64,000 nucleotides of DNA. It comes from Dehalococcoidia bacterium (GTDB taxonomy: Bacteria > Chloroflexota > Dehalococcoidia > Lucifugimonadales > Lucifugimonadaceae). Shown here one piece after another: positions 2,319-50,926 of this stretch (positions are counted from its first letter, which is position 1; each line of letters opens with the position of its first letter). Position numbers and translations under genes: made by a program. Where the stretch lies: contig OZ253497.1 in NCBI GenBank assembly GCA_965262065.1, forward strand, positions 493,637 through 557,636, read 5' to 3'. Below the pieces are notes generated by a model. It was given only the letters and a program-made list of their open reading frames with translations. It made no database searches and was not told the origin of the DNA.

Positions 2319-3602
2319 TTGACCCCAACCGCCCACACCCATTACCGTAGAACATATGTTCGCCACAGAACAACAAACCGAACAAACCACCAACCCCTCG
2401 CCGACATCATCCGCGAGGAGACCGACGACGGCCGGCTCGTAATCCGCTTCCTCATCGATGTCATGCAGGGCAAGGTCGATGATTCCAAACCCTGCCACCG
2501 CCTCGACGCCGCGCGGCAACTCCTCAACCTCGGCTTCCGTGGCGCACAAACCGTCATGCAGTCCGCCTCCCAGTCGGCCGGCGTCCGCGCGCCTTCTTCC
2601 ACCTCCGGCAATTCCAGCGTAAATCAGGAACTTGCAGACATCATCAAGTCGGAAACATCCAACGGCAGGGACATCGTCCGATTCCTCGTCGACGTCATGC
2701 AGGGCAACCTGGGCGATTTCAAACCGCACCACCGCATCACAGCCGCTAAAGAGCTGCTCCGACGGGGATTCGACAGCTCCCCCGGTCACACCAACAACGA
2801 GTACGAAGACCATGACGAATCGTTCGACGATGACCCCAGTAGCCCCAATTACGTGGACCCCAACGCTATCCGGCGCAACAAGGAAAACGACCCGTTCGAC
2901 TTCGAAAACTACGACGAAGAGCAATACCGGCGCGACGGACACGGCGGCAGGGCCTTAAGACACATCTACGGCAACTGGGAAACCATGATAGTGGCCATCG
3001 ATGCAGCCAACCATTCCCGGCACGACGCCCACATCCCCGACCGCGATTTCACCCCGACTGAGAACCCCGAGGACGACCCCTACGGCAAAGGTTGCTACGG
3101 ATACAACGCTCTGCGCTTTTATTTCCGTGACAACAAGGCCATCAGAGCCGCCAACGAGGCAGTCGAGGAATACAAGAAGCGAAAGGCCGAACGCCCCGAA
3201 GATGAAACAGCACGCGAAGGACCACCTGTGGATCGCCCGTCCTGTTGCTTCCCAAAACCCACCGCTCCTTCTTCCTCCGAAGAAGACGACACAATGCCTC
3301 CAGATCACTGGTCCCGTAAGTACATGGAACGCATCCGCAATCGCTCCATCGAAACAGACGAACCCTCTAAAGACGCGGCCCCCGATCAGTCCGAACCGAT
3401 CCAACCTCCCGAAAGTCCATACACCAGCGAGTCCGAGCCCGGCCAGTCCAAGTCCCACAAATTATCCGACGCCAAGGACCCGCCCAGGAAAAGACCCGTG
3501 AAAATCTTCGTCGGCCCGCCGGACGAAGACCCGCGCCAATGCAGGGACCCAGGCGACTTCCAAGGCGCGATCGACAGCATCCGGTCAGCTGGCGTTTTCT
3601 GA
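2319..3602 (+). CDS. hypothetical protein with tandemly duplicated ~47-aa module and acidic/Pro-rich tail
   Basis: ORF track 427 aa. Module 1 is 'LADIIREETDDGRLVIRFLIDVMQGKVDDSKPCHRLDAARQLLNLGF' and module 2 is 'LADIIKSETSNGRDIVRFLVDVMQGNLGDFKPHHRITAAKELLRRGF' (28/47 identical by hand). The start is uncertain: the track start is TTG 2319, and there is no in-frame ATG before the first module. Confidence 0.55.
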   Translation: MTPTAHTHYRRTYVRHRTTNRTNHQPLADIIREETDDGRLVIRFLIDVMQGKVDDSKPCHRLDAARQLLNLGFRGAQTVMQSASQSAGVRAPSSTSGNSSVNQELADIIKSETSNGRDIVRFLVDVMQGNLGDFKPHHRITAAKELLRRGFDSSPGHTNNEYEDHDESFDDDPSSPNYVDPNAIRRNKENDPFDFENYDEEQYRRDGHGGRALRHIYGNWETMIVAIDAANHSRHDAHIPDRDFTPTENPEDDPYGKGCYGYNALRFYFRDNKAIRAANEAVEEYKKRKAERPEDETAREGPPVDRPSCCFPKPTAPSSSEEDDTMPPDHWSRKYMERIRNRSIETDEPSKDAAPDQSEPIQPPESPYTSESEPGQSKSHKLSDAKDPPRKRPVKIFVGPPDEDPRQCRDPGDFQGAIDSIRSAGVF

Positions 3603-3839
3603 CCGGTTCATGAATCGGACCGGCGCACGCCCTCGCCCCACTGTCTTTGCAACAAAATGCCTTTGCCACCGTGCCGCGTCGTAGGGGCGTTGGGATCTGG
3701 GCGCCCGTTGGGGAGGGCCATGTTAACCGTCGATCGGAAACGGATCGCGCCCAGTCCGGGTCCTCGATCCGAAACCCAGCGACGCGCGGACGACGGGGTG
3801 ATCCGCGGCGCGGCGGTCGCTCCGGGGACGAGGCCTCCG

Positions 3840-5276
3840 CTAGAGCTTCTCCAGCTGCTCCACGACGGTTTCGGCGGAAACCTGGTGGGTGAAGCTCCTA
3901 CCGATGCTCTGCCAGACAACGGCGCCCGATTTGTCAATCAGGAATACCGACGCCGCTGCAAGGCCATCGCCAAACAGGTCGAAGACCTCGTAACCCGCCG
4001 GGACGGCGCTGTCACCGCCGGTGTAAAGCATGGGGAACTGCGGCCCGACCTGCTGAATCAGGGTCTCCGAACCTTCAAAATTGTCCGTGCTGATCGCAAC
4101 CACCTCGGCATCGAGGCCAGCGATTGAAGCGTAATTGTCGTTCAGCTCGACGAGCTGCTGTCGGCAGAAACCTCACCAGAACGCCCTGTAGAAGACCAGC
4201 ACGACGTTCTTGTTGCCCTCGTAGTCGTCAAGACTCACCTGGCCGCCGTGAGCGTTCGGAAGGTTGAAAGCGAAGGCCTTGTCTTCATCGTCCTCGAACG
4301 TGATAGGCGGGGCCGTCGTTGCGGTCGGTTCCGGTATGGCGGTGGGCGCGCGCGTTGCGATTGGATTGCGCACGGGCGTGGGCGTGGGGGCGGACTTTGA
4401 AGTGGGAGTGTCGGCAGGCGCCTCGGTCGCGCCCGGAGCGGCCGTCGGGGAGGGTTGTCCAGGCGCGGCGGTGGGCGTGTCGTCAGGCGGGGTCGCCGCG
4501 GTCGCCGCCGGGGCGGGTGTATCGGCGGGGGCGGTAGTGGGCGTCGGTACGACTGGCGGGCTCTTCACAAACTCGGGCGGCGGCCCGGACATGAAGTCTC
4601 GCGCCACTTTCAGTATGTCCTCGGCGTCCGGCCTGTCCCCGGCGTGCCTGCCTATATAGGCGGCTACGAGGTGGCCGGCCGGGGCGAAAACGAACATGGA
4701 CGGCGCCGAAACTCCGTCACCGAGCAGGTCGTAGACGTTCCACGAGCGGGCGACGGCGGTGGTGGTGTCGTACAGCACCGGGTAGGTGAGTTCATTCCTC
4801 TTTACCATCTCCTCGGCCTGCGGCCTGCTATCGACGCTGATGGCGATTATCTCGAGGTCGAGGGCCTGGAACTCCCGGTACCTTTCCTGCAGCTCGACGA
4901 GCTGCCCGTGGCAAATCTCTCAGAAATAGCCCCGATAAAAAACGACGACGACCGGTTGCTTGCCGATGTAGTCGGCGCTGTTAAATTCGCCACCGCCGGC
5001 CTTGGGCAATGTGAACTCGGGGAAGCCGGCCGGGTCGTAGCTTTGAACTAGCAGGAGAGTCTTGGGAGGCGTGGGCGTGGACGTAGATTTGACGGCAGGG
5101 GCCTGCGTCGACTCTCCCGGCGCCTGGGTCGGGCTGCTCGTCTGGGAGTCAGAACTGCACGCGACGGCCGCAAAGGCAGCTACCAACATGGTTGCCAAAG
5201 CCGCAAATCCGTGCCTTGGCAAAATTCGAAAACTGCTTCGACTTGTCACTGATATTCCCCGCGCCGCGATAGCCAT
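3840..5276 (-). CDS. exported tandem two-domain peroxiredoxin-like/redoxin (thioredoxin fold) with two in-frame UGA codons, probable selenoprotein (2 x U-x-x-C)
   Basis: Track ORFs 4920..5276, 4173..4808 and 3840..4103 (all minus) share one frame. They are separated only by TGA at 4920-4922 and 4173-4175. The gaps translate without stops: EICHGQLVELQERYREFQALDLEIIAISVDSRPQAEE and GFCRQQLVELNDNYASIAGLDAE. Contexts are 'VVVFYRGYF-U-EIC-HGQLVEL' and 'VLVFYRAFW-U-GFC-RQQLVEL', which match the F-Y-R-G-x-W-C-x-x-C-x-x-Q-L redoxin motif. There is an N-terminal signal peptide with 'FAAVAC' and a ~90-aa Pro/Thr/Ala linker between domains. Confidence 0.8.
4143..4157 (-). promoter_or_regulatory. candidate bacterial SECIS hairpin for UGA-2
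   Basis: The mRNA reads UGA + 15 nt, then CAGCUC-GUC-GAGCUG: a 6-bp stem with the same GUC loop. Sequence and spacing match the hairpin after UGA-1. Confidence 0.5.
4889..4905 (-). promoter_or_regulatory. candidate bacterial SECIS hairpin for UGA-1
   Basis: The mRNA reads UGA + 14 nt, then GCAGCUC-GUC-GAGCUGC: a perfect 7-bp stem with a 3-nt loop starting with G-U. Confidence 0.5.
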
Positions 5277-18945: not shown

Positions 18946-19899
18946 TCAGGCGCGTTTGACCGCGATCAACTCGGCGTGGACCAGAATCCGCCGGTCATAG
19001 ACATTCGGCGGCCAGCACGTGACGAGAATAATGCTGGAGTTCGGCGTGTTGGTTATCGCCAGGTCGTCCTGGTGGAGTTGTTCCGTCGCGACCACCCGAT
19101 AGAGATACTCCGCGTCCTCCGTCACGAGCACCACGTCGACGGGGTCCTGTCGTATGAGGTCCGCTATGTCCGGCAGGCGCCTGAACACGTCGCCTTCACC
19201 CTGCAGAATGCTCCGCAGATGCCCGAAGTACCATCCCTGAGCCATCTCGCCGGGGCGCGCCGTATCCGGTATGTGGCCGACGGTGTTGTCCGGCGTCTCG
19301 TACGAGAGTTGGTCCTCGATGTTCACGAGGCCAAGCTCCGCAACGCTCGAATCGAGGTTAACCGCCGGAATCTGAATTCGGACGGCGTTGCTCCTCGCCG
19401 CCTCCGCAACGTTCGTATCACGCGACGACACCGGCTCAAACCCCTCGGGCAGACTCGGTCCGCCGAACGGCGCGGCGCCGGCCCAGTACGGCTCGGCCCA
19501 GTACTTGGGATTGGTCAGGTTGGCCGGATAGACCGAGGCGAGATCGAGTACGTCCTGGCGCGGCAAATCGCCTGTCGCGGGACCGGCGCCGGTCGTCGCG
19601 TATTCATCCTCCGGCTCCAGTACCTCGGTGGTTTCCGGTCGCGCCGCACCGGTGGATCGAAGCGCCGGATCCTTGACAGGGTCGACCGGCGCAGCTTGCG
19701 CAAGCAGTTCCGGCAGGTCCGACGGAGGCGCCTTTACCTCGAACCAATCTTTGTCGGAACCGGATCGTGCGCCGGAGTACAGGTAGTATGCGACCAATCC
19801 GAACAAGACCAGACCGACGACGATCAGCCCTATCGACATCGTCGTCAACCAGGCCTGACGGGCCTTGGGCGTTCGGCGCATCTCTGCAATCTCGTTCAT
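18946..19899 (-). CDS. sortase family transpeptidase
   Basis: N-terminal TM, 'GHIPDT..GWYFGHL', catalytic 'LVTCWPP', downstream 'RRILVHAE'. Confidence 0.8.
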   Translation of the reverse strand: MNEIAEMRRTPKARQAWLTTMSIGLIVVGLVLFGLVAYYLYSGARSGSDKDWFEVKAPPSDLPELLAQAAPVDPVKDPALRSTGAARPETTEVLEPEDEYATTGAGPATGDLPRQDVLDLASVYPANLTNPKYWAEPYWAGAAPFGGPSLPEGFEPVSSRDTNVAEAARSNAVRIQIPAVNLDSSVAELGLVNIEDQLSYETPDNTVGHIPDTARPGEMAQGWYFGHLRSILQGEGDVFRRLPDIADLIRQDPVDVVLVTEDAEYLYRVVATEQLHQDDLAITNTPNSSIILVTCWPPNVYDRRILVHAELIAVKRA

Positions 19900-25237: not shown

Positions 25238-26395
25238 TTAAATCCCGCGGATCGATCCTCCCGCGGAGGTTGTTCGTTCCATCGGAGGATGCCGCGCTAT
25301 TTCGTCTTCGACAAATTCCAGGCCCAGTCCCGGCGCGTCGGATAACTTCACGTAGCCGTCCTCCTGGCGTGGGAAACCGGCCGTCACGTCGAAGTAGTGC
25401 GGATCGTAGAACTCTGCGTGGTACTCCTGGATGAGGAAGTTCCATACCGCCGCGTCGAGGTGCATCTCCGCCATCGCTCCCACCGGGGAGCAGACGTTGT
25501 GCGGCGCCATCGTTGCGTGCTCCGCCTCGGCGAGCGTGGCGATCTTCCTGAGCTCCGTGATGCCGCCCGCGTTGGCTATGTCCGGCTGCAGCACGTCGAC
25601 CGCCCTCGCCTTCAACAGCTGGTTGAACGGGAAAATCGTGTACAGCCGCTCGCCCGTGGCGATCGGGATATCGACGCGGTCTCTAACCTCCGCCATCTCG
25701 TGCACGTTCTCCGGCGAGACCGGTTCTTCATAGAAGAGCGGCCGGTACTCCTCCATCCGCTTGCCGAGTTGAATGGCAGTGACAACGTTGAACTTGGCAT
25801 GCGCCTCTACGAGGATGTCGACCTCCGGCCCGACCGCGTTGCTCACTGCGGCCACCCGGTCCTGCGCAAGTTGCGCCTCGCGCAGCGAGATGGTGTAGTA
25901 GTTTGTCTGGCCGAACGGGTCGAACTTGAGGGCCGTGTATCCCATGTCCACCACGACCTTCGCCTCGTCGGCGTTCTGCGCGGGCGTGCCGGGGTTCGTA
26001 TACCAGCCGTTGGCGTACACCCTGATTCGGGTGCGATGCGCGCCGCCGAGCAGCCGGTAGACCGGCTGGTCAAGGATCTTGCCCTTGAGGTCCCACAGCG
26101 CCATGTCGATCCCGGACAACGCGGTCGTCGCAATGCGTCCGCCGCGCGCTTGTTGGTCCATGTACAGCACGTTGTGCAGCACGCCGGAGTCGAGCGGGTC
26201 TTTTCCCACGAGGTAACGCGCCGTCAGTTCTTCGACGAACGACATCACCTCGGCGTCGTTCTGCATGGGGCTGGCGTCCCCGAGGCCGCTGAGCCCGGGC
26301 TGATCGGTGTTCAGCTTGACCATCAGCCAATTGCGGCTCGCGTTGTGGTGCCTCGCCGAGAATCGCCTGAACTCTACGCCCGTTATCGCTGGCAT
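25238..26395 (-). CDS. enolase-superfamily dehydratase (mandelate racemase/muconate lactonizing family), paralogue 1
   Basis: Start at 'MPAITGVEF' (ATG 26393-26395, AAGGA upstream). Motifs: 'ALWDLKGK', 'LKFDPFG', 'VEAHAKF', 'FYEEP', 'IATGERL', 'VLQPD'. The tracked extension to 26824 overlaps the next gene and looks non-coding. Confidence 0.88.
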   Translation of the reverse strand: MPAITGVEFRRFSARHHNASRNWLMVKLNTDQPGLSGLGDASPMQNDAEVMSFVEELTARYLVGKDPLDSGVLHNVLYMDQQARGGRIATTALSGIDMALWDLKGKILDQPVYRLLGGAHRTRIRVYANGWYTNPGTPAQNADEAKVVVDMGYTALKFDPFGQTNYYTISLREAQLAQDRVAAVSNAVGPEVDILVEAHAKFNVVTAIQLGKRMEEYRPLFYEEPVSPENVHEMAEVRDRVDIPIATGERLYTIFPFNQLLKARAVDVLQPDIANAGGITELRKIATLAEAEHATMAPHNVCSPVGAMAEMHLDAAVWNFLIQEYHAEFYDPHYFDVTAGFPRQEDGYVKLSDAPGLGLEFVEDEIARHPPMERTTSAGGSIRGI

Positions 26396-26638
26396 CGTGT
26401 TTCCTTGCCAACCCGCTGTATTCACGGGCCCGTTGTCGTCCGCACCCCTGCCGATGAAAGGGAACCCACGATCCCGCCGCCGTCGGCTAGTCGTCGCAGT
26501 GTAACGGCCCTGACAAAATCGCGGCGGCGCCAGCCGTTCCAGTGGATGTACCGCGGGCCGCTTTAACGGCCTCCAACGCCGGGCGCGCCCACCCTTTGCG
26601 TACAATCCAGCCAGAACCGGCGCCGGAGAAGGAGAAAC

Positions 26639-27748
26639 ATGTCCAGGCCGATCATCATCATCTGCATAGACGGGTTCGACCCCGATTATCTCGAGGCGGC
26701 CGAAATGCCCAACCTGCGGGAAATCGGCCGCAAGGGCTTCATGACCACGGGCCGGTCGATGATGCCGTCGGTGACCAACGTGAACAACGTCTCGATCGTC
26801 ACCGCCAGCTATCCCGCCGAGCACGGAATATGCTCGAACTACCGATGGGACAGGGAGACGGGCGAAGGGTTCTACATGGAGTCGGCCGAGAACATCCGCT
26901 CCCGGACGATGTTCCGGCGCGCCGGTGAACTTGGAATGACGTCGATCGTGGTCACCGCCAAAGACAAGCTTCGTACGCTCGTGGGCGTCGACGCCACGAC
27001 ACCGGTCTCCTCCGAGCGGGCGCCCGATTGGATCACCGCCGCCGTAGGCGACCCGCCGGAGGTCTACTCCCTGGAGGTGAACGGGTGGGTGATTGACGTC
27101 GGCAACTTCCTAATGAAGCAGCGGCCGGTGGATATCGCCTATCTCACGACCACGGACTTTGCGATGCACATGAACCCGCCCGACCATCCGGAGGCCCTCC
27201 GCCACATGGCCATCCTCGACGACGCCATAGGCCGCATCGCCGCCGACCACCCAGACGCGACGATCCTAATCACGGCCGACCATGGGATGAACCAAAAAAC
27301 CGAAATGGTCGATCTCAAGGCCATTCTTTCTGGGCGGGGCATCCAGTCCAACCCCGTCGCGATCATCAAGGACCGCTATGTCTTGCACCACTCGAACCTC
27401 GGTGGGTGCATGTACATCTACCTCGATCCGGCGAACGTCCGCGAGGCCATCGAAATCCTCCGCGACACGCCCGGAGTCGACGGCGCGATGACGAGAGAGG
27501 CGGCAGCGGAACGATTCGATCTCAGGCCGGACGCTATCGGCGATATCGTGGTGACGGCCTCTCGGTCTGTCGTTTTCGGGGACGCGGCAGAGGTCTCCAT
27601 TCCCGATGGCCTGCGGTCCCACGGCTCCGTGCACGAGCGCGACATACCGATCGTCGGGTACAAAGGCGATTTCGACGGCTTCGAGTTTCGTGAGAACCGC
27701 GACGTAGGCCGATACGTGTTCGAACGCGTGCTCGGGCGATCCGATTGA
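26639..27748 (+). CDS. alkaline-phosphatase-superfamily hydrolase, phosphonoacetate hydrolase (PhnA)-like
   Basis: 'IIICIDGFDPDYL', 'MPSVTNVNNVSIVTASYPAEHGI', 'VTAKDKLRTL', 'TTDFAMH', 'ITADHGMNQKT', 'LRSHGS'. These resemble PhnA as I remember it. Confidence 0.6.
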   Translation: MSRPIIIICIDGFDPDYLEAAEMPNLREIGRKGFMTTGRSMMPSVTNVNNVSIVTASYPAEHGICSNYRWDRETGEGFYMESAENIRSRTMFRRAGELGMTSIVVTAKDKLRTLVGVDATTPVSSERAPDWITAAVGDPPEVYSLEVNGWVIDVGNFLMKQRPVDIAYLTTTDFAMHMNPPDHPEALRHMAILDDAIGRIAADHPDATILITADHGMNQKTEMVDLKAILSGRGIQSNPVAIIKDRYVLHHSNLGGCMYIYLDPANVREAIEILRDTPGVDGAMTREAAAERFDLRPDAIGDIVVTASRSVVFGDAAEVSIPDGLRSHGSVHERDIPIVGYKGDFDGFEFRENRDVGRYVFERVLGRSD

Positions 27749-28911: not shown

Positions 28912-30054
28912 TTACTGGTCTATGACCGATCCGTCGGCGTGCAGCCTCGTATTGATCTCGCGGGGCGTGAAGGGAACCTTCTCTCGCGCGTCGGGCTTTA
29001 GCTCGACACCGATTCCCGGCTCGTCGGAGATAATCAGGTAGCCGTTGCCATCGTGCACCGGCGTGCCGGTGACCATGTCGCTCTTCGGCGGCACGTCCTC
29101 GCCCGTCGGGTACTCCTGCAGTGAGAAGTTCGGCACGGAGGCGGCAATCTGCAAGCAGGCCGCAGTGCTGACCGGACTGAGCGGGTTGTGCGGCACGACG
29201 CCCACGTGTCTGGCCTCTGCGGCTGCGGCGATCTTCTTCGTTGCAGAGATGCCGCCCACGATGCACACGTCAGGCCGGACGTACTGGACCGCGTTCCTGC
29301 TGAGCGCCATCTCGAAGTCCCAGAGCGAGGTGAACCGCTCACCGGTGGCTATGGGGATGTTTATCTTGTCGGCCACGTACGCCATCTCATCGATGTTGTC
29401 CGGCGTCACGGGGTCTTCGTAGAAATAGGGGTGGAACTTCTCGATGCCCAGGCCGAGCTGGACCGCTTCGGTGGGCGTGAGCCTCCGGTGTATCTCGATG
29501 CACAGATCGACGTCGCGGCCTACCGCCGCACGGTAGTCGGCCACTGTGTCGATGGCGTCTTCGATCTTCGCCACGTGGGTCTTGAAGTACGGCAGGTCGT
29601 GCGATTCGTCCAGGAACGGCGTCAGGTGCCCCACGGCAGTGAAACCCAATTCCTTTGCGGCCTTGACGCCGTTGACGAGCTTCTCGCGGGTGTTTCCGAA
29701 CACGTGGTAGTAGACACGCGCCTTGTCCCTGACCTTGCCGCCGAGCAATTGATGCACGGGGACGTCGAAGTGCTTGCCGGCTATATCCCAGAGCGCGATG
29801 TCGATCGCGCTGATAGCGCCCATAATGGCCGAGCCGCGGAAGTGGGATGAGCGGTACATGAACTGCCAGTGGTGCTCGATCCGGAGAGGGTCCTTCCCCA
29901 TGAGGTAGCGGCCGTATTTTTCGATTGCGACGGCAGACGATTCGAGGTAGCCCCACGCGCCCGACTCACCCAGGCCGGTAATGCCTGCGTCCGTCTCGAT
30001 CTCTACCAGCAGGTACCTGTCCAGAAAGATCGGTTCAACTTTAGTTATCTTCAA
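28912..30054 (-). CDS. enolase-superfamily dehydratase, D-galactonate dehydratase (DgoD)-like, paralogue 2
   Basis: TTG start with AGGAGAG upstream. Motifs: 'MKITKVEP..LLVEIETDAGITGLGES', 'ALWDIAGK', 'IEIHRRL', 'FYEDP', 'IATGERF', 'YVRPD'. Confidence 0.88.
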   Translation of the reverse strand: MKITKVEPIFLDRYLLVEIETDAGITGLGESGAWGYLESSAVAIEKYGRYLMGKDPLRIEHHWQFMYRSSHFRGSAIMGAISAIDIALWDIAGKHFDVPVHQLLGGKVRDKARVYYHVFGNTREKLVNGVKAAKELGFTAVGHLTPFLDESHDLPYFKTHVAKIEDAIDTVADYRAAVGRDVDLCIEIHRRLTPTEAVQLGLGIEKFHPYFYEDPVTPDNIDEMAYVADKINIPIATGERFTSLWDFEMALSRNAVQYVRPDVCIVGGISATKKIAAAAEARHVGVVPHNPLSPVSTAACLQIAASVPNFSLQEYPTGEDVPPKSDMVTGTPVHDGNGYLIISDEPGIGVELKPDAREKVPFTPREINTRLHADGSVIDQ

Positions 30055-31704: not shown

Positions 31705-31977
31705 ACTCGAACCCGCCTTGCGGGCCGTCGAAGTCCCGCGCCGGTCTTGTGGGGGAAACAGGGAGCAACACGTTGGTTGACCGACGCAGTCCTGAAAGAT
31801 CGAACTGCGTCGGCGATTCTCTTTGCTCCGCAGACCCGGCGTGGAATACTACTACCCCGCGGAGCGCCCGCCTCGCCAATTGCCGAGATATTCGGGCCCG
31901 GGACCAACTATCGACTAGAGGACGGCCGAACGCGTAGAGTCGGCCACGCATATCGCCGCGAATTCGGAGGAAAAAAG

Positions 31978-33108
31978 ATGAACGGACCAGACATATACGA
32001 CCGGCTCGGCGTCACAAAGGTGATCAACGCCCGCAGCTGGGTAACCGCCCTCGGCGGATCGATCATGCGGCCGGAAGTATTTGCGGCCATGGAAGAGGCG
32101 GGGCGGCACTTCGTCGACATGGACGAGTTGATGGCTGCCGGCGGCAAGGTCGTGGCGCGGGCGTGCGGCGCTGAGGCGGGCATGGTCTGCGCCGGAGCGG
32201 CGGCCGGAAACCTGCTCATGGCGGCCGCCGCCATCACCGGGACCGACAGGTCCAAGGTCGACCGCCTCCCCGATACGACCGGCATGAAGAACGAAATCGT
32301 CATCTTCAAGTCGCAACGAAATTCATACGACCGGACGTTCGAGACCGCGGGCGGCAAGCTCGTGGAGATAGGCATGCCGAAGACGGTGACGGCATACCAG
32401 CTTGAAGCCGCCATCGGAGACGCGACGGCAGGAGTGGTCTACACGCTTGCGCCGTTCCTTCCGCGCCCGCTCTCCCTCGAAGAGACCATAGAGATCGCCC
32501 ACGCATGTGGCGCGCCCGTCCTGGTCGACGCCTCGGCGGAGGTGCCGCCGGCCGACAATCTGACAAAACCGATGAGAGCCGGCGCCGACATGGTGACCTA
32601 CTCAGGCGGCAAGGGCATCTGCGGCCCGCAAAACTCCGGTCTGCTGGCCGGCCGGGCAGATTTGATTGAAGCGGCGTTCATGAACTACCTGCCCGCAGGC
32701 GCGCCGCGCGCCGGCATCGCGCGCCCGGCGAAGGTGTCCAAGGAGACCATCGTCGGCCTGGTCACGGCGATCGAGCTGTTCCTCGACTCCGATCACGAGT
32801 CGGTGTGGGCAGGCTGGCGGCAGAAGTGCGAGCACGTCGTCGAAAAGGTCAGAGGAATCCCCGGCCTGCGGGTGGTGATAGAGGACAACGAGAACCGGCA
32901 GGGGCCGCAGCCGGTGATTTACCTCGAACCCGAGTGGAGCGGTCCGCCCGCGGACGAAATACGCAGGCGTCTCGCCGAGGGCAACCCACCGATAATGATC
33001 GGCTCAGGCGGTTACGGGGACGAGCTGAACGTGGTGATGGTCAACGTGCGGCCTGGCGAAGAGAAGATCATCGCCGATCGCCTGCACGCAATCCTCACCT
33101 CCGAGTGA
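31978..33108 (+). CDS. SelA-fold PLP-dependent enzyme (DgaE-like), copy 1
   Basis: ATG 31978 preceded by GGAGG. Motifs: 'VINARSWVTALGGSIMRPEV' and PLP-Lys context 'YSGGKGICGPQNSGLLAG'. At 376 aa it lacks the N-terminal extension of true SelA. Confidence 0.75.
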   Translation: MNGPDIYDRLGVTKVINARSWVTALGGSIMRPEVFAAMEEAGRHFVDMDELMAAGGKVVARACGAEAGMVCAGAAAGNLLMAAAAITGTDRSKVDRLPDTTGMKNEIVIFKSQRNSYDRTFETAGGKLVEIGMPKTVTAYQLEAAIGDATAGVVYTLAPFLPRPLSLEETIEIAHACGAPVLVDASAEVPPADNLTKPMRAGADMVTYSGGKGICGPQNSGLLAGRADLIEAAFMNYLPAGAPRAGIARPAKVSKETIVGLVTAIELFLDSDHESVWAGWRQKCEHVVEKVRGIPGLRVVIEDNENRQGPQPVIYLEPEWSGPPADEIRRRLAEGNPPIMIGSGGYGDELNVVMVNVRPGEEKIIADRLHAILTSE

Positions 33109-33124
33109 CCGGGACGCGATCGCG

Positions 33125-34270
33125 ATGCCGATGCCGCTCCGAACCCCCGAACCGTACGCCAGGCTGGGCGTAAAGCCGGTCATCAACGCCCAAAGCTGGG
33201 TGACGGCGCTCGGCGGCAGCCTCATGCGGCCCGAAGTATTGAGCGCCATGAACGAGGCGGCGGCGTGCTTCGTCGACATGGTCGAACTCAACCGGGCGGC
33301 GGGCAAGGTAGTGGCGCGGGCATGCGGGGCCGAATCGGGCATGGTCACCGCGGGAGCGTCGGCGGCCGGGACCATCGCCGTCGCGGCCTGTATGACCGGC
33401 GTCGATCGAGCAAGGGCGGAGCACCTGCCCGACCCGACGGGAATGAAGAACGAGGTGGTCGTCTTCTGGGGAGAGCGCAACCGCTACGACATGTCGTTCG
33501 AGTTGCCGGGGGCGCGGATCGTCGAATGGGGCGTGCCGGGCGCCGGGGCGGCCTACCAGCTCGACGCTGCGATCACCGAACGCACCTGCGCCGTCGCGGC
33601 CGTATTCCAGCCGCTGTTGAAACGCGGCCTGCCGGTGAGCGAAATGTGCGAGGTCGCCCACGCCCGCAACGTGCCGGTGATCGTGGACGCCGCCGCCGAG
33701 GTCCCGCCGCTGGCCAACCTCACGCGCTTTATTCAGGATGGCGCCGACCTGGCGTTCTTTTCCGGCGGCAAGGGCATCGGGGGGCCGCAGAACGCCGGCC
33801 TGCTAGCCGGCAGCAGCGACCTGATGGAGGCTGCGTACGTCAACGCGCTCAACCTTGACGCGCCGCGGGCTGGAGTGGCTCGGGGGATGAAGGCGTCCAA
33901 GGAGTCGATCGTGGGAATGGTCACGGCGCTCGAACTCCTGGTCGAAACGGGGGAGGACGCCCTGTACGGAGGATGGATGGCCAAGGCGCGGCATATTCAC
34001 GGCCGCCTGGAGCACGTCGAAGGGCTGCGAGTCGTCATCGAAGAGACGGGGCCCGACCGTCACGGGCCGCAGCCGGTGGTCTACTTCGAACCTGGGTGGC
34101 GCGGGCCCTCGCCAGCCGAGATCCGCCAACGCCTGCTCGACGGCGACCCGCCAATACACGTCGGCATGGGCCACTACGCCGATGAGATCAACCTCGTCAT
34201 GGTGTGCCTCCAAGACGGCGAAGAAGAGATCGTCGCCGAGCGGTTGTTGGAGATTCTCGACACGGCCTAA
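33125..34270 (+). CDS. SelA-fold PLP-dependent enzyme (DgaE-like), copy 2
   Basis: 'VINAQSWVTALGGSLMRPEV', 'FSGGKGIGGPQNAGLLAG'. It is a clear paralogue of the upstream gene. Confidence 0.75.
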   Translation: MPMPLRTPEPYARLGVKPVINAQSWVTALGGSLMRPEVLSAMNEAAACFVDMVELNRAAGKVVARACGAESGMVTAGASAAGTIAVAACMTGVDRARAEHLPDPTGMKNEVVVFWGERNRYDMSFELPGARIVEWGVPGAGAAYQLDAAITERTCAVAAVFQPLLKRGLPVSEMCEVAHARNVPVIVDAAAEVPPLANLTRFIQDGADLAFFSGGKGIGGPQNAGLLAGSSDLMEAAYVNALNLDAPRAGVARGMKASKESIVGMVTALELLVETGEDALYGGWMAKARHIHGRLEHVEGLRVVIEETGPDRHGPQPVVYFEPGWRGPSPAEIRQRLLDGDPPIHVGMGHYADEINLVMVCLQDGEEEIVAERLLEILDTA

Positions 34271-35868: not shown

Positions 35869-37050
35869 CTAGTCCCCGCGCGGGGGTGAGACGCCTGCTT
35901 TGTGGAAGTTTCGTTCGTCTTCGACGGTCCTGAGGGGCCGGGGCGCGTGTCGGTCGTATGTGTACTCTTTCAGAGCCGCCTCGTTGATTTCGATGCCGAT
36001 CCCCGGCTCGGTGGGCAACTCGACGTAGCCCTGGTCCGGCACGAGCGGCTTCACCATCAGCTTGTTGCACACGTCCTGCAGGCCGTGGGGGTACTCGTAC
36101 ATCAGGAAGTTCGGTATGACGGCGGACGCCTGCACGCCGGCCGCGAACGAGATCGCCGCGCTATTGGCGCCGTGGGGCGAAATGCCCATGTCGTACGCCT
36201 CGGCCATGGCGGCGATCTGCACGATCTCCAGTATCCCGCCCGTGTTCGAGATGTCTGGGTTGAGGTAGTCGGCCGCACGGCGCTCGAATACCTCGACGAA
36301 GCCGCGCCGCCCGTAGATCGCCTCGCCGATCGTTACCGGAATGTTGAGGGCGTTCTTGACCTCGGCGATGCCCCGGATGTTCTCCGGCGGACACGGCTCC
36401 TCGAACCAGTAGGGCCGGTACTTCTCGATCATGCGGCCGACCATGATCGCCTCGATGGGCGATAGACGCCGGTGGACCTCGATGAGTATCTCGACGCGCG
36501 GTCCGACCGCCTCTCGCACCGCTCCGACCTTGGCGGCCGCCAGTTCAAGGTCGGCGTGATCCACGAACGAACGCCACGGCCCGGGGAACGGGTCGAACTT
36601 CAGGGCGTCGTACCCCAGTTTCACTGACTTCAGCGCGCTGTTTGCGCACTCCTCCGGCGTGTCGCCCGCCGCTCCGCCGCCGTAGACCCTGAGCGCCGGG
36701 CGAACGGCGCCTCCCAGCAGGTTGTAGACCGGCTGGTCGAGGGCCTTGCCGGTGATGTCCCACATGGCGATCTCCAACCCGCTCACTGCGCTGTAGACGT
36801 CCATGGAGCCGCGCTTGAGAAACATGTCCTCGTAGGCCCAGTGACGGAAGTGGCCGATCTGCATCGGATCGCGGCCGATGAGGTAACGCTTCATCTCGTC
36901 GATATGCGCCGTGATCGCCGTGTCACGGTCGAGTTGCGTGTACGCCTCGCCCCAGCCGACGATTCCGTTGTCGGTGGTTATCTTGACGAACACCCAGTTC
37001 TTGGTCTGTGGCGGATGCACTATGAAGGTTTCGATGTCCTGGATTTTCAC
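35869..37050 (-). CDS. enolase-superfamily dehydratase, paralogue 3
   Basis: GTG 37048-37050 is preceded by AGGAG (7-nt spacer) and gives 'VKIQDIETFIVHPP'. Motifs: 'AMWDITGK', 'IEVHRRL', 'WFEEP', 'VTIGEAI', 'YLNPD'. The track ORF extends to 37224; ATG 37122 is an alternative start. Confidence 0.88.
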   Translation of the reverse strand: MKIQDIETFIVHPPQTKNWVFVKITTDNGIVGWGEAYTQLDRDTAITAHIDEMKRYLIGRDPMQIGHFRHWAYEDMFLKRGSMDVYSAVSGLEIAMWDITGKALDQPVYNLLGGAVRPALRVYGGGAAGDTPEECANSALKSVKLGYDALKFDPFPGPWRSFVDHADLELAAAKVGAVREAVGPRVEILIEVHRRLSPIEAIMVGRMIEKYRPYWFEEPCPPENIRGIAEVKNALNIPVTIGEAIYGRRGFVEVFERRAADYLNPDISNTGGILEIVQIAAMAEAYDMGISPHGANSAAISFAAGVQASAVIPNFLMYEYPHGLQDVCNKLMVKPLVPDQGYVELPTEPGIGIEINEAALKEYTYDRHAPRPLRTVEDERNFHKAGVSPPRGD

Positions 37051-37239
37051 TTCGCCGCTCCTCTTGTCTGCGAGGTCATGATGGCCCGGCCACTTAGTCG
37101 GGCCGTGAGTTGCTGGGAACATGTTACGGCCGACCCGCCCGGCGTAGAGCATGGCCGGGGGTAATCGCGCGATACTGTCCGTTTGAATGTGCACGCAGCG
37201 CGGCATGACAGCCGGACGCCGCAAAATCAGGGATAGGCA

Positions 37240-44318: not shown

Positions 44319-45611
44319 TCACGGTCTTACAATGCTGCCATCGGCTCGCCGGACCTCGTTCCACGCTCCCCCGAACCCCCATTCGCTATGCGGAAACTTC
44401 GCAGCAAGTTCCTCGTCGATGTCGATGCCCAGGCCGGGCTTGCCGTTTGACCACATGTGGCCGTCCCTGACTTCGGGGCATCCCGGGAAGACCTCTTTCG
44501 TGCGTTCGCCGAAGATGGCGTATTCCTGCACACCGAAGTTCCAGCTATTCAGGTCCATCATCAGGTTTGCGGCGTGGCCGACTGGAGACGTGTCCCCCGG
44601 CCCGTGCCACGCCGTTCGCACCCCGAACATCTCCCCCATCGCAGCCAACTTGCGGCATGGCGTGATCCCGCCCATCTGCGAAACGTGGATCCGTATGAAG
44701 TCGATCAGCCGGTCCTTGACCATGGGAACCACCTCGTGCGGGTTGTTCCAAAGTTCGCCCATCGCCAGAGGTGTGGCGCACAGGCGACGGACCATCCGGA
44801 AGTAGTCCTGGTCCTCCGGCGAAAACAGGTCTTCGAGGAAAAACAGGCGGTACTGCTCGACCTCTTTGGCGAACCAAACGCCGTCGATCGCCGGGATGCG
44901 CTCGTGGACATCGTGCAGCATCTCGAAGTCCCAGCCGCACTGTGAACGAACGAGTTCGAACAGCCGCAGGGCGCTATTCATGTATGGCTTCGGCTCGAAT
45001 ATGCCGGGTGGGTGCGCGTACCGCTTGTCGGGCGAAAGTTCTTTGTTCCAGGTGGTTACCTGGCGGGGAGCGCCTCCGGCCACACCTGCGGTTTCGGCCT
45101 TTTTCTCCAGGCCCTTTGTGCCGTAAGTCGCGTATCCGGGCGTGTCGACCTGGACGCGGATGTGATGGAATCCCTGGTCCATGAAGGCGCTAACTTTGTC
45201 TGCCACCTCGGCCGGTTCTCGGCCGCTCGCGTGCACATAGACCGCGGCGGCCTCCCTCGCACGGCCTCCCAACAGGTCATACACCGGCATACCGGCCATT
45301 TTGCCCTTGATGTCCCACAGGGCCTGGTCCACCCCGCTCAGCGCGTTGTTGAGGACGCCGCCGTTGCGCCAGTACGAACTGACGTAACTCGATTGCCAGA
45401 TGTCCTCGATGTCCGCCACGTTCCACCCGATCAAAAACGGGCGCAGATAATTCTCCACCGCCACCTTGACCGGCAGCGGTCGCTGCGTGAAGGTGGCGCA
45501 TCCGACCCCGTAGAGGCCCGGCTCGCTTGTCTCCACCTTGACGATGACCAGACGTATGCCGTCCGGCTCGGTCAGGATGACTTTTATGTCTCTGATAGTG
45601 ACGTTGCTCAC
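44319..45611 (-). CDS. enolase-superfamily dehydratase, D-mannonate dehydratase (ManD) subgroup-like, paralogue 4
   Basis: 'IEDIWQSSYVSSYWRNGGVLNNALSGVDQALWDIKGK', 'HDVHERI', 'FLEDLF', 'LAMGELW', 'IRIHVS'. Confidence 0.88.
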   Translation of the reverse strand: MSNVTIRDIKVILTEPDGIRLVIVKVETSEPGLYGVGCATFTQRPLPVKVAVENYLRPFLIGWNVADIEDIWQSSYVSSYWRNGGVLNNALSGVDQALWDIKGKMAGMPVYDLLGGRAREAAAVYVHASGREPAEVADKVSAFMDQGFHHIRVQVDTPGYATYGTKGLEKKAETAGVAGGAPRQVTTWNKELSPDKRYAHPPGIFEPKPYMNSALRLFELVRSQCGWDFEMLHDVHERIPAIDGVWFAKEVEQYRLFFLEDLFSPEDQDYFRMVRRLCATPLAMGELWNNPHEVVPMVKDRLIDFIRIHVSQMGGITPCRKLAAMGEMFGVRTAWHGPGDTSPVGHAANLMMDLNSWNFGVQEYAIFGERTKEVFPGCPEVRDGHMWSNGKPGLGIDIDEELAAKFPHSEWGFGGAWNEVRRADGSIVRP

Positions 45612-45671: not shown

Positions 45672-46919
45672 TTATGGTCGGACAATCGCGCCGTCGGCCC
45701 GGCGAACGAGCTCCCTGAACATATCCCGTTCCGGTATCGGATATTTAGCCGCCAACTTCTCGTCGATGTCGATGCCGAGTCCGGGCTCGCCGTTGGGCCA
45801 CATGTGGCCATCCCGCACCTCGGGGCAACCGGGGAAGACCTCGCGGGTCCGTTCGGGAAACACAGCCCACTCGTGGACGCCGAAATTCCACGTGTTCAAC
45901 TCCAGCATCAGGTTGGCCGAGTGGCCGACCGGCGAAGTGCCGCCCGGCCCGTGCCACACTGTGCGCACGCCGAACATCTCGCTCAGCGCGGCGTACTTGC
46001 GGCACGGCGTCAGGCCGCCCACACGCGAGACGTGAATCCTAATGAAGTCGACGAGGCGGTCCTTGACCATCGGGATGATCTCGTGCGGGTTCGACCAAAG
46101 TTCCCCCATGGCTATAGGAGTCGTGCAGATCTGGCGCACCTGGCGGAAGTAGTCCTGGTCCTCGGGCGTGAACAGGTCTTCGAGGAAGAAGAGGCGGTAC
46201 TGCTCCACCTCTTTGGCGAGCCATACCCCGTCGATCGCAGGGATGCGTTCGTGGACGTCGTGCAGCATCTCGAAGTCCCAACCGACCTTGCTGCGAAGGT
46301 GATCGAACAGGCTGAGGGCCGAGTTCATGTAGGGCTTCGGTTCGAAGATGCCCCCGCGCCATGACGTCACGGCCCTTGGCCCGCCCATCGTTCCGGCGCG
46401 CCCATCCACCTCGCCGCCGCCGTGTGCGCCGTAGGTCTGGTAACCCGGCGTTTCGACCTGAACCCGCAGGTAGTGGAAACCCTGTTCGATATAGTCCCGG
46501 ACCTGGTCCTCGACGGCCTCGTTGTCCGGTCCGCTGGGGTGCACGTAGACGGCGGCGGCTTCCCTGGCGCGGCCGCCAAGCAGGTCGTACACCGGCATGT
46601 TGGCCAGCTTTCCCTTGATATCCCACAGTGCTTGATCGACACCGCTGAGAGCGTTTCCCAGTATCGTGCCGTTGCGCCAGTAAGAACTGACGTTGGCGGA
46701 TTGCCATATGTCTTCTATGTCGGAGACGCTGCGGCCAATGAGAAACGGACGCAGATAGTCATCCACCGCAGACTTGACCGTGAACGGTTGCCGGTCGTAC
46801 GTCGCGCAGCCGAGGCCGTACAGGCCGGGCTCCGTGGTTTCGACCTTGACGACTGCGAGGGCGTTGTTGTCCGGCTGGGTCAGGATCGTCCGGATGTCGC
46901 GGATTTTCGGGTCGCTCAA
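45672..46919 (-). CDS. enolase-superfamily dehydratase, ManD subgroup-like, paralogue 5 (tandem to paralogue 4)
   Basis: It has the same motif set as 44319..45611, for example 'FEMLHDVHERIPAIDGVWLAKEVEQYRLFFLEDLF'. It differs mainly in the loop after 'QVETPGY'. Confidence 0.88.
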   Translation of the reverse strand: MSDPKIRDIRTILTQPDNNALAVVKVETTEPGLYGLGCATYDRQPFTVKSAVDDYLRPFLIGRSVSDIEDIWQSANVSSYWRNGTILGNALSGVDQALWDIKGKLANMPVYDLLGGRAREAAAVYVHPSGPDNEAVEDQVRDYIEQGFHYLRVQVETPGYQTYGAHGGGEVDGRAGTMGGPRAVTSWRGGIFEPKPYMNSALSLFDHLRSKVGWDFEMLHDVHERIPAIDGVWLAKEVEQYRLFFLEDLFTPEDQDYFRQVRQICTTPIAMGELWSNPHEIIPMVKDRLVDFIRIHVSRVGGLTPCRKYAALSEMFGVRTVWHGPGGTSPVGHSANLMLELNTWNFGVHEWAVFPERTREVFPGCPEVRDGHMWPNGEPGLGIDIDEKLAAKYPIPERDMFRELVRRADGAIVRP

Positions 46920-48894: not shown

Positions 48895-48903
48895 CGGATG
48901 TTT

Positions 48904-49000
48904 CCATGTACTCCCTCCGCTGGCATTACCCAGATCAGGTGGTGGGGTCGGCGCAATTTCCCGCGCCCTCTCAGCCCGAATTCTCGAGCTCCCCCGCACC
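48904..49000 (-). promoter_or_regulatory. TPP (THI-box) riboswitch
   Basis: The minus strand reads GGUGCGGGGGAGC..GGGCUGAGAGGGCGCGGGAAAUUGCGCCGACCCCACCACCUGAUCUGGGUAAUGCCAGCGGAGGGA. It contains the conserved CUGAGA and ACCUGAUCUGG(A/G)UAAUGCCAGCG boxes, upstream of thiG-thiE-thiS. Confidence 0.9.
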
Positions 49001-49034
49001 CCCGCCGTTAACAGGGGTGAATCATTACAAGCGT

Positions 49035-50175: not shown

Positions 50176-50926
50176 GCCAGCCGCGTCCGTGTTCAAGCCA
50201 TCCGGCATTTTGATTGATCTCGACGGTACGTTGATCGACACGGACGACCGGTGCTCCCCGGTCGTTGCGAGGGCGGTGAGGCGGGCCGCGAAACGAATAC
50301 CTGTGGCCATCGCATCCGGTCGGGAACCGGACGAAGTCTCCCACTTCGCACGGATGCTCGGGCTCCAACTGCCGCAGGTTTGCGACAACGGAGCACGCCT
50401 CGTAGATCCCTTGACCGGCCGGTCCCTGCAAGATAGTCCAATGCCCGAGCCTGTGGCCCGTGGATTGATCGATTCGATCTGCGCCGCCGGCCTGGGTTTC
50501 TACGCCGTCGAAAATGGCCGGATGGTGAAAACAAAAGACGGCTTCAGGGAATGGGCCGTCACGATCATCGCTGCCAACGCCGGTGACGAAAGCACAGCCA
50601 GATCTTTGGCTCACAAGTTGGCATCGGACGAGACCACCACGGAACTATCTACCAACCCCGACGGCACGTTCTGGTACGTGAACTTCGTGCGCCCCGGCAT
50701 AGACAAGGCCCACGGGGTCCGGCAATTTGCAGAAACCCAGGGGCTTGATCCACGGGAACTGATGGCGGTTGGCGACGGCCTCAACGACGTGTCGATGTTC
50801 AATTTGGTGGGCCTGCCCGTAGCCATGGGAAACGCGTCGGAAGAGGTCAAACGGTACGCCGGATTCGTTGCCCGAAGCCTGGCAGACGACGGTCTGGCCG
50901 AAGCCATCGAACGCTTCGTGCTCTAG
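50162..50926 (+). CDS. HAD-IIB (Cof-type) phosphatase
   Basis: 'ILIDLDGTLIDTD', 'AVGDGLNDVSMF'. A TTG start overlaps the upstream gene by 14 nt; the start is uncertain. Confidence 0.8.
   Translation: MSRTEPAASVFKPSGILIDLDGTLIDTDDRCSPVVARAVRRAAKRIPVAIASGREPDEVSHFARMLGLQLPQVCDNGARLVDPLTGRSLQDSPMPEPVARGLIDSICAAGLGFYAVENGRMVKTKDGFREWAVTIIAANAGDESTARSLAHKLASDETTTELSTNPDGTFWYVNFVRPGIDKAHGVRQFAETQGLDPRELMAVGDGLNDVSMFNLVGLPVAMGNASEEVKRYAGFVARSLADDGLAEAIERFVL

Follow-up and report, generated by a model that had tools for sequence, protein, structure and literature searches.

We analyzed a 64,000-nt stretch of contig OZ253497.1 from a SAR202-type Dehalococcoidia bacterium (hereafter the window), and we describe here a gene on its minus strand, at 3840-5276, that very probably encodes an exported redoxin with two selenocysteine (Sec) residues. 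The window has 62% G+C and carries tyrS, ribF, trpA, ftsH, and DgaE-like enzymes. By direct translation, 3840-5276 is a single frame of 478 sense or UGA codons followed by TAG, in which the only internal stops are two TGA codons (positions in Table 1), one within FYRGYF--EIC and the other within FYRAFW--GFC. A mechanical list of open reading frames (ORFs) cuts this frame in three: 4920-5276 (118 aa), 4173-4808 (211 aa, from an internal ATG), and 3840-4103 (87 aa, from GTG).

When both stops are read as Cys, Pfam finds two AhpC-TSA/Redoxin domains (whole-protein E = 1.4e-51), with AhpC-TSA reaching 174 bits over two stretches; with U at the stops, the motifs read U-E-I-C and U-G-F-C, so that each PF00578 domain carries a UxxC motif. 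The initial annotation had joined the three ORFs into a protein with a signal peptide bearing an "AAVAC" pattern, a redoxin domain, a linker of about 90 residues rich in Pro, Thr, and Ala, and a further redoxin domain, and this layout matches both the translation and the Pfam results. The N-terminus (MAIAARGISVTSRSSFRILPRHGFAALATMLVAAFAAVAC-SS, with the pattern ...AAFAAVA-C40-SS), read by eye, resembles a lipoprotein signal in which the Ala at -3 is a weak lipobox position. Among the gene models of the family, a simple pattern (a hydrophobic run followed by [AVG][AG]C) is present in 105 of 146, and most of the others show a signal by eye. The n-region of the signal has an Arg-Arg pair in most orthologues (at the related loci L001, L003, L004, L006, L007, and L011-13; e.g., TSRRRYRIL and GRRINRIL), compared with SRSSFRIL in the window (residues 13-17).

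Table 1. Features of the predicted two-selenocysteine redoxin gene, in window coordinates.
Feature	Position	Strand	Basis
Complete coding sequence, 478 codons (two UGA) plus TAG at 3840-3842	3840..5276	-	Direct translation and orthologues
Predicted lipoprotein-type signal peptide, residues 1-40: positively charged n-region, hydrophobic core GFAALATMLVAAFAAVA, lipobox Cys40 (codon 5157-5159)	5157..5276	-	Read from the sequence
Redoxin domain 1, residues ~85-222, FYRGYF-U-EIC	4611..5024	-	Pfam AhpC-TSA 85-204 and Redoxin 85-222; PDB sequence matches to Bcp, Prx, and ResA
UGA codon 119, predicted selenocysteine 1	4920..4922	-	TGA in every orthologue
SECIS-like hairpin 1, GCAGCUC-GUC-GAGCUGC, beginning 14 nt past the UGA	4889..4905	-	-11.5 kcal/mol; 6/200 shuffles as stable
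Pro/Thr/Ala-rich linker, residues ~237-325, of varying length among orthologues	4302..4568	-	Indels; dN/dS 0.23-0.54
Redoxin domain 2, residues ~331-478, FYRAFW-U-GFC	3843..4286	-	Second Pfam stretch; PDB matches to AhpE and ResA; best NF040769 stretch 335-414
UGA codon 368, predicted selenocysteine 2	4173..4175	-	TGA in 71/72 genome loci
SECIS-like hairpin 2, CAGCUC-GUC-GAGCUG, beginning 15 nt past the UGA	4143..4157	-	-8.0 kcal/mol; 18/200 shuffles as stable

Scanning one genome per GTDB species yielded 72 related loci, all from Dehalococcoidia, SAR202, or Chloroflexota, with identity down to ~48% and with the cultured Ca. Lucifugimonas marina JH545 among them. Three metagenomic contigs are syntenic with the window (L001, ~97% DNA identity; L003, ~96%; L004, ~81%), and all keep the gene with both TGA codons; L003 comes from the 3.59-Mb circular metagenome-assembled genome (MAG) OZ244715.1 ("Dehalococcoidia bacterium") and L004 from OZ220681.1. 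The order tyrS, class-V aminotransferase, redoxin genes, DUF1015 is kept from the lineage of the window to Lucifugimonas. Most SAR202 genomes have either one gene or a row of three single-Sec genes, in which neighbours often share 4 nt, and strain JH545 has a single-Sec member at L048 (NZ_CP046146.1). Beside the latter, at L048 4559-5203, stands a paralogous AhpC/TSA lipoprotein without the redox motif (...LLFIPSTTDELDISQL...), having neither Cys nor Sec.

Orthologues holding both TGA codons in the same frame were found at L001, L003/L005, L004/L008, L006, L007, L011-L013, L016, and L017. The tandem architecture, which the initial annotation had suggested looking for in related MAGs, does recur: with the exception of L016, these loci share with the window the fused two-Sec form ("GIC" domain 1, linker, "GFC" domain 2), which is present in about ten related genomes. 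At L016 (OY282385.1, ~3060-5146), one 693-residue ORF contains three redoxin domains with TGA codons in FYRGNF-U-GIC, FYRAFW-U-GFC, and FYRAFW-U-GYC, and its product would be a three-selenocysteine lipoprotein. L017 has a similar layout, but its third domain is cut off by a stop within the second linker. An extra gene lies directly past the tandem gene in L001 (10001-11395) and L004 (10411-11439), and is not present in the window or L003; it encodes DUF6174, a Pro/Thr linker, and a redoxin domain with a third TGA. The DNA of this redoxin domain is nearly identical to that of domain 2, and the 3' flank of the window gene matches the flank of the extra gene, which suggests that the window lost the extra gene by recombination between two copies of domain 2.

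Of the 72 scanned loci, 71 carry TGA at the U position. The odd one out, L076, is a 5'-truncated relic without the motif, in which the C-terminal redoxin half remains at ~3900-4290, directly past the aminotransferase stop. Over all loci together, 156 of the 157 sites matching [FY]R[GA]xx-?-xxC have TGA, and TAA or TAG occurs at none of those 156; the single non-TGA site is an Asp codon in the distant homologue L002. Such agreement, at 156 of 157 homologous sites from more than 70 independent assemblies, goes far beyond chance. The segments past the UGAs also evolve as coding sequence. In comparisons of the window gene with six orthologues (Nei-Gojobori method; synonymous divergence, dS, from 0.08 to ~2), the ratio of nonsynonymous to synonymous divergence (dN/dS) was 0.09-0.26 in the domain segments past the first and second UGA, and 0.16-0.45 in the stretches (47 and 23 codons) that separate the two UGAs from the nearest possible restart codons. 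Both UGA codons thus appear to be translated rather than to terminate, and the three ORFs, whose frame and TGA codons are kept in orthologues out to dS ~2 with purifying selection past each UGA, are by all indications of the sequence one gene, as the initial annotation had proposed. Its predicted product is an exported, membrane-anchored precursor in which two thioredoxin-fold redoxin domains (U119-E-I-C and U368-G-F-C) are joined by a Pro/Thr/Ala-rich stalk. TGA is otherwise an ordinary stop in this DNA, in agreement with the initial annotation: among 31 window genes with family matches, 15 end in TGA (including ribF, trpA, and tsaD), 9 in TAG, and 7 in TAA. A global reassignment of UGA was therefore rejected.

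A protein database search with the full-length sequence was swamped by the low-complexity Pro/Thr linker (3 matches from 8000 candidates), and domain 2 alone was then used as the query against 5.8 billion proteins. Nearly all of the homologues retrieved are fragments: pieces of 86-88 aa starting past U, pieces of 190-230 aa ending in ...FYRAFW, and "peroxiredoxin" pieces of ~102 aa. Gene callers therefore split this family everywhere, and the initial annotation was right to expect that they would miss such a protein. The family is small, since only 189 related clusters emerged when 1.84 billion cluster representatives were searched exhaustively with HMMER. The initial annotation had also placed each UGA where the first catalytic Cys of the motif would stand, and the alignment agrees: in the full-length representatives that were fetched, the residue aligned to U is Cys in 36 (e.g., VFYRGFF-C-GICRGQLVEL and VFYRAYW-C-SACRRQL). 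Nine database sequences terminate exactly at U. The distant homologue P0073 is a tandem CxxC/CxxC lipoprotein, and in P0201 and P0209 domain 1 carries CxxC and the sequence stops at the domain-2 U. Three entries (P0013, P0107, and P0115) show Trp at the Sec position, in FYRAFW-W-AAC and GHF-W-GIC. P0013 is identical to the L071 gene, and its Trp is a gene-calling artefact, because the L071 gene carries TGA at that codon; some public gene calls evidently translated such contigs with a code in which UGA is Trp.

Within the coding sequence, 14-15 nt past both UGAs, lies a hairpin of 6-7 bp, (G)CAGCUC-GUC-GAGCUG(C), that resembles a selenocysteine insertion sequence (SECIS) and is encoded by the conserved peptide Q-L-V-E-L. 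In 108 distinct sequences, 87% of the cells of the 7-pair helix are paired, compared with 12-42% when the 3' partner is slid, and the covariation score of the hairpin was reached by 0 of 500 shuffles. The third position of the Gln codon and the first position of the second Leu codon, both synonymous, form A-U in 56, G-C in 37, and G-U in 14 of these sequences and are unpaired in 1; in a larger set of 129 sequences the counts are 75, 39, 14, and 1, respectively. Codon choice in the hairpin departs from that in the remainder of these genes: all 107 Glu codons are GAG (41% elsewhere), the second Leu codon ends in G in 95% (33% elsewhere), and the first Leu is CUA in 44% (10% elsewhere). A hairpin forms at 127 of 129 distinct sites, at +18..+34 and with a mean of -7.5 kcal/mol. 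Given this pairing, synonymous covariation, codon bias, and folding, the hairpin is under selection at the RNA level beyond the constraint imposed by the peptide. The apical loops (GUC, AGGUG, AGUUG, CGGGA, and GGUCG) start 20-21 nt past the UGA, and nearly all have G in the first two bases. We take the hairpin to fit the published bacterial SECIS consensus and to resemble the GGUC loop of the E. coli fdhF element.

Several observations weigh against the reading of these UGAs as Sec in a working surface redoxin. Neither the 64-kb window nor ~650 kb of related DNA (76 loci) yielded selA, selB, selD, or tRNA-Sec. ARAGORN reported zero tRNA genes in the window and zero tRNA-Sec in all loci, and tblastn with E. 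coli SelA, SelB, and SelD queries retrieved nothing but two DgaE-family (selA_rel) enzymes at 31747-34270. The hairpin is short (6-7 bp), and it overlaps the conserved peptide Q-L-[VG]-[EK]-L, so that its conservation is partly at the protein level. Folds of 60-73 nt past the UGAs are, unlike the local hairpin, not more stable than shuffles (z of +1.2 to -0.4), RNAalifold gave no consensus structure for the 108 sequences (pairs were counted explicitly instead), and Rfam has no match within the gene at gathering or permissive thresholds. The protein scores below the curated NCBIfam cut-offs for all named families: the best match, "SelL-related redox protein" (NF040769), has a summed score of 101.9 bits from three stretches, where 120 are required, and ResA (PRK03147; 79.3 against 170) and TlpA (45.9 against 230) fall short of equivalog membership. 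No gene for CcdA/DsbD or a substrate adjoins the redoxin gene, whose conserved neighbourhood consists of tyrS, the class-V aminotransferase, and DUF1015.

Nevertheless, the Sec reading is strongly supported by the conservation of the UGAs, the Cys in distant homologues, the coding selection past each UGA, the selected hairpin, and the use of TGA as a stop elsewhere, and we consider it highly probable that both UGAs encode Sec. Some further support is indirect. The complete genome closest to the window, OZ244715.1, holds a different UxxC selenoprotein family as well, a DsbA-like lipoprotein with FSDFT-U-GHC (L003 18619-19452, minus strand; TGA at 19102-19104) ~8 kb away from the redoxin orthologue. 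The highest-scoring NCBIfam model for this lipoprotein is NF041057, "Rcas_1661 family thioredoxin-like (seleno)lipoprotein", with 120.7 bits against a cut-off of 190. The same genome also holds a second redoxin locus, L014. BSepDB comprises only species with a Sec pathway, and two MAGs of marine Dehalococcoidia, one with 49 and the other with 46 selenoprotein genes, are in its top ten (PMC13326102).

We would like to note that the window contains a pair of genes easily mistaken for Sec machinery. Two DgaE-family enzymes, resembling ammonia-lyases and dependent on pyridoxal phosphate (PLP), adjoin each other among sugar-acid genes (31747-33108 and 33125-34270, both on the plus strand). They have a weak Pfam SelA match but belong to the DgaE family ("selA_rel", TIGR01437), and were rejected as SelA.

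Three other accounts of the UGAs were weighed. UGA could be read as a standard amino acid (Trp, Cys, or Gly), without selenium, by a suppressor tRNA or a context-dependent code variant. Such readthrough would fit a window and related loci in which no Sec machinery was observed, and it could draw on the three database entries with W at the Sec position, but the W of P0013 is the artefact described above, and TGA stops about half of the ordinary window genes. Moreover, the recoded UGAs are confined to the nucleophilic residue of a CxxC-type motif, a position held by Cys in homologues, and each has a selected hairpin, a combination that is the signature of Sec; Dehalococcoidia MAGs are also published Sec users (PMC13326102). 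We consider this account very unlikely, and we give the same small chance to true termination at each UGA, which would yield three polypeptides, or the first only, with the later pieces made by re-initiation. An in-frame ATG or GTG does follow each UGA and is used by gene callers. Against this, the pieces would begin and end in the middle of a thioredoxin fold, parting U from the rest of the active site, and the downstream pieces would be without signal peptides; the codons ahead of the first restart codons are still under purifying selection, and the stop is never TAA or TAG at the 156 TGA sites.

Least likely of all, and in our view extremely improbable, is a decaying pseudogene with two nonsense mutations, or else a sequencing or assembly error. 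A single base change turns TGC or TGT into TGA, and decay does occur in the family, as seen in the truncated relic L076 and the Lucifugimonas paralogue without the redox motif. Yet the identical TGA recurs in 70+ independent assemblies, including long-read circular genomes, the frame is free of frameshifts and other stops, and dN/dS is well under 1 on either side of each UGA. This purifying selection past each UGA effectively rules out a pseudogene, and also counts against termination with re-initiation.

Among proteins of known structure, the nearest in sequence are AhpE of M. tuberculosis, archaeal Bcp, and ResA. When the protein is aligned with AhpE, the retained Cys of the UxxC motif corresponds to the peroxidatic Cys, while the Pro, Thr, and Arg of peroxiredoxins (Prx) are replaced by Arg, Sec, and Ala, respectively. 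Of the features of a true Prx (PxxxTxxC and a conserved Arg), only the Cys is kept, and because the other three residues are replaced, the protein is not a canonical peroxiredoxin. The structural comparison used the AlphaFold model of the SAR202 homologue P0013 rather than of the window protein; its domain has a predicted local distance difference test (pLDDT) score of ~80-96, and its N-terminal 66 residues are disordered. The best PDB matches of this model are to ResA (template modelling score, TM, of 0.84-0.87 by target), followed closely by Bcp and Prx. Helix 109-120 (alpha-1) comes directly after the U position (residue 108), and the redox motif thus sits, on the model of this homologue, at the N-terminus of helix alpha-1 in an exported thioredoxin fold, as in ResA/TlpA-type proteins.

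From these comparisons, we infer that the protein probably works like an extracytoplasmic selenol/thiol oxidoreductase of the ResA/TlpA type rather than as a true peroxiredoxin. The main functional alternative to such a disulfide reductase is a selenoprotein that acts as a surface peroxidase, in which Sec would react with H2O2 or organic hydroperoxides and the Cys would resolve. AhpC-TSA is the best Pfam family, the retained Cys aligns with the peroxidatic Cys of both AhpE and Bcp, and Prx structures rank close behind ResA in the fold search, all of which would suit a peroxidase; the replaced catalytic residues, the motif geometry of CxxC oxidoreductases, and ResA as the best structural match would not. 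We regard the peroxidase as a serious but rather unlikely possibility.

For the ResA/TlpA-type selenoprotein, the following course of events can be proposed. SelB and Sec-tRNA(Sec) would bind the hairpin, which would act as a minimal bacterial SECIS, and deliver selenocysteine. Export and lipidation at Cys40 would place both domains on the outer face of the cytoplasmic membrane. There, the Sec at the N-terminus of helix alpha-1 may attack a disulfide, sulfenic acid, or peroxide substrate, after which a selenenylsulfide would form between Sec and the Cys three residues on. Either a CcdA/DsbD-type electron donor in the membrane or a partner redoxin would then reduce this bond again. As a nucleophile of low pKa that resists overoxidation, Sec would be suited to a surface in oxic seawater. 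On a broader evolutionary scenario our judgement is evenly balanced: SAR202 may keep an ancient locus of surface-anchored Sec redoxins, fused in one sub-lineage into two- and three-Sec chains and serving as a Sec-based extracytoplasmic redox relay. In this joint scenario, each Sec would be inserted through its own minimal in-frame SECIS of 6-7 bp, and that SECIS, with the same even balance, would be built from the palindromic codons of the peptide Q-L-V/G-E-L.

Other features of the window include five paralogues of the mandelate-racemase/enolase superfamily within 22 kb, all on the minus strand (25238-26824, 28912-30054, 35869-37224, 44319-45611, and 45672-46919) and accompanied by UxuA-like, aldo-keto reductase, and amine-oxidase genes. 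Such an expansion of mandelate-racemase/enolase paralogues is typical of SAR202. A thiamine pyrophosphate (TPP) riboswitch lies at 48895-49005 on the minus strand (Rfam RF00059, 62 bits, over the gathering score). Also on the minus strand, at 50923-52743, a 606-aa ORF joins AccD (residues 31-284) and AccA (285-566) in a fused acetyl-CoA carboxylase carboxyltransferase.

In public gene calls, the redoxin family is split into two or three pieces that are named "redoxin domain-containing protein" or "peroxiredoxin" or left nameless, so the real protein is invisible in SAR202 genome analyses and in metaproteomic databases. The gene suggests that a heterotroph abundant throughout the deep ocean worldwide depends on selenium. 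It would also offer a compact natural case of two to three Sec insertions per bacterial ORF by way of tiny SECIS elements embedded in a peptide, which could inform what SelB recruitment minimally needs. Under the broader evolutionary scenario above, the gene would be among the few bacterial cases of repeated Sec insertion on one mRNA, in a clade, SAR202, that dominates the deep ocean.

Several parts of this picture have precedents. Predictions of UxxC "Prx-like" selenoproteins with PF00578 date back to 2004-2008, and ocean metagenomes are rich in them, with "Prx-like 1" counting 225 sequences in the Global Ocean Sampling (GOS) survey (PMC2398784), which agrees with the statement in the initial annotation that such proteins are known from marine bacteria. 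The UxxC type of Prx-like thiol:disulfide oxidoreductase has been described (PMC2398784, Table 2; PMC9312934; PMC13188914), selenolipoproteins are already known (NF041057; bioRxiv 10.1101/2022.07.06.499078), and so are bacterial proteins with two to three Sec, such as an arsenite methyltransferase/AhpD fusion and MbdU (PMC13188914). We found no paper linking SAR202 to selenocysteine, and no described tandem-redoxin selenoprotein with one Sec per domain in the literature, a comparison that leaves aside the BSepDB entries themselves. The initial annotation had called a tandem, secreted, two-Sec version unusual; this holds for the tandem arrangement with one Sec in each domain, and does not extend to the domain type, selenolipoproteins, proteins with two or three Sec, or selenoprotein-rich marine Dehalococcoidia, all of which are already published.

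The window gene shares with the known Prx-like UxxC/UxxU selenoproteins (pfam00578) its PF00578 domain, the position of U-x-x-C, and a marine range, and it is predicted by the same logic of aligning U to Cys. The described ones, however, are single-domain proteins with one Sec or UxxU, whereas the window gene fuses two domains (L016 three), each with its own UGA and hairpin, in one predicted lipoprotein, and the SAR202 family forms a conserved syntenic locus. With SelL (NF040769) it shares a motif of the type FYRG-x-W/F-[U/C]-x-x-C and a Prx-like fold; the window protein has UxxC once per domain and a score below the cut-off, while SelL proper reportedly has UxxU served by one SECIS. Similar to ResA, TlpA, and DsbE, it is predicted to be exported and anchored in the membrane and to have a thioredoxin fold whose helix alpha-1 starts with the nucleophile, but those proteins are single-domain, use Cys in a WCxxC motif, and are known to serve in the maturation of cytochrome c or Cu centres, and the window gene has no adjacent cytochrome-maturation genes. 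The Rcas_1661 family (NF041057) is a Chloroflexota precedent for an exported, lipid-anchored UxxC selenoprotein, and differs in being of a DsbA-like subfamily with a single Sec. The bacterial proteins with two to three Sec likewise reach more than one UGA-encoded Sec per ORF by domain fusion, but they fuse unlike domains or have adjacent Sec residues, whereas the window gene repeats a redoxin. Like the minimal SECIS of E. coli fdhF, the window hairpins lie within the coding sequence soon past the UGA, at a comparable spacing and with G and U in a small apical loop; they differ from it in their shorter stem (6-7 bp), in having no bulged U, and in going unrecognised by Rfam models. The gene is thus a new architectural, multi-domain version of a known type of selenoprotein, and not a new kind.

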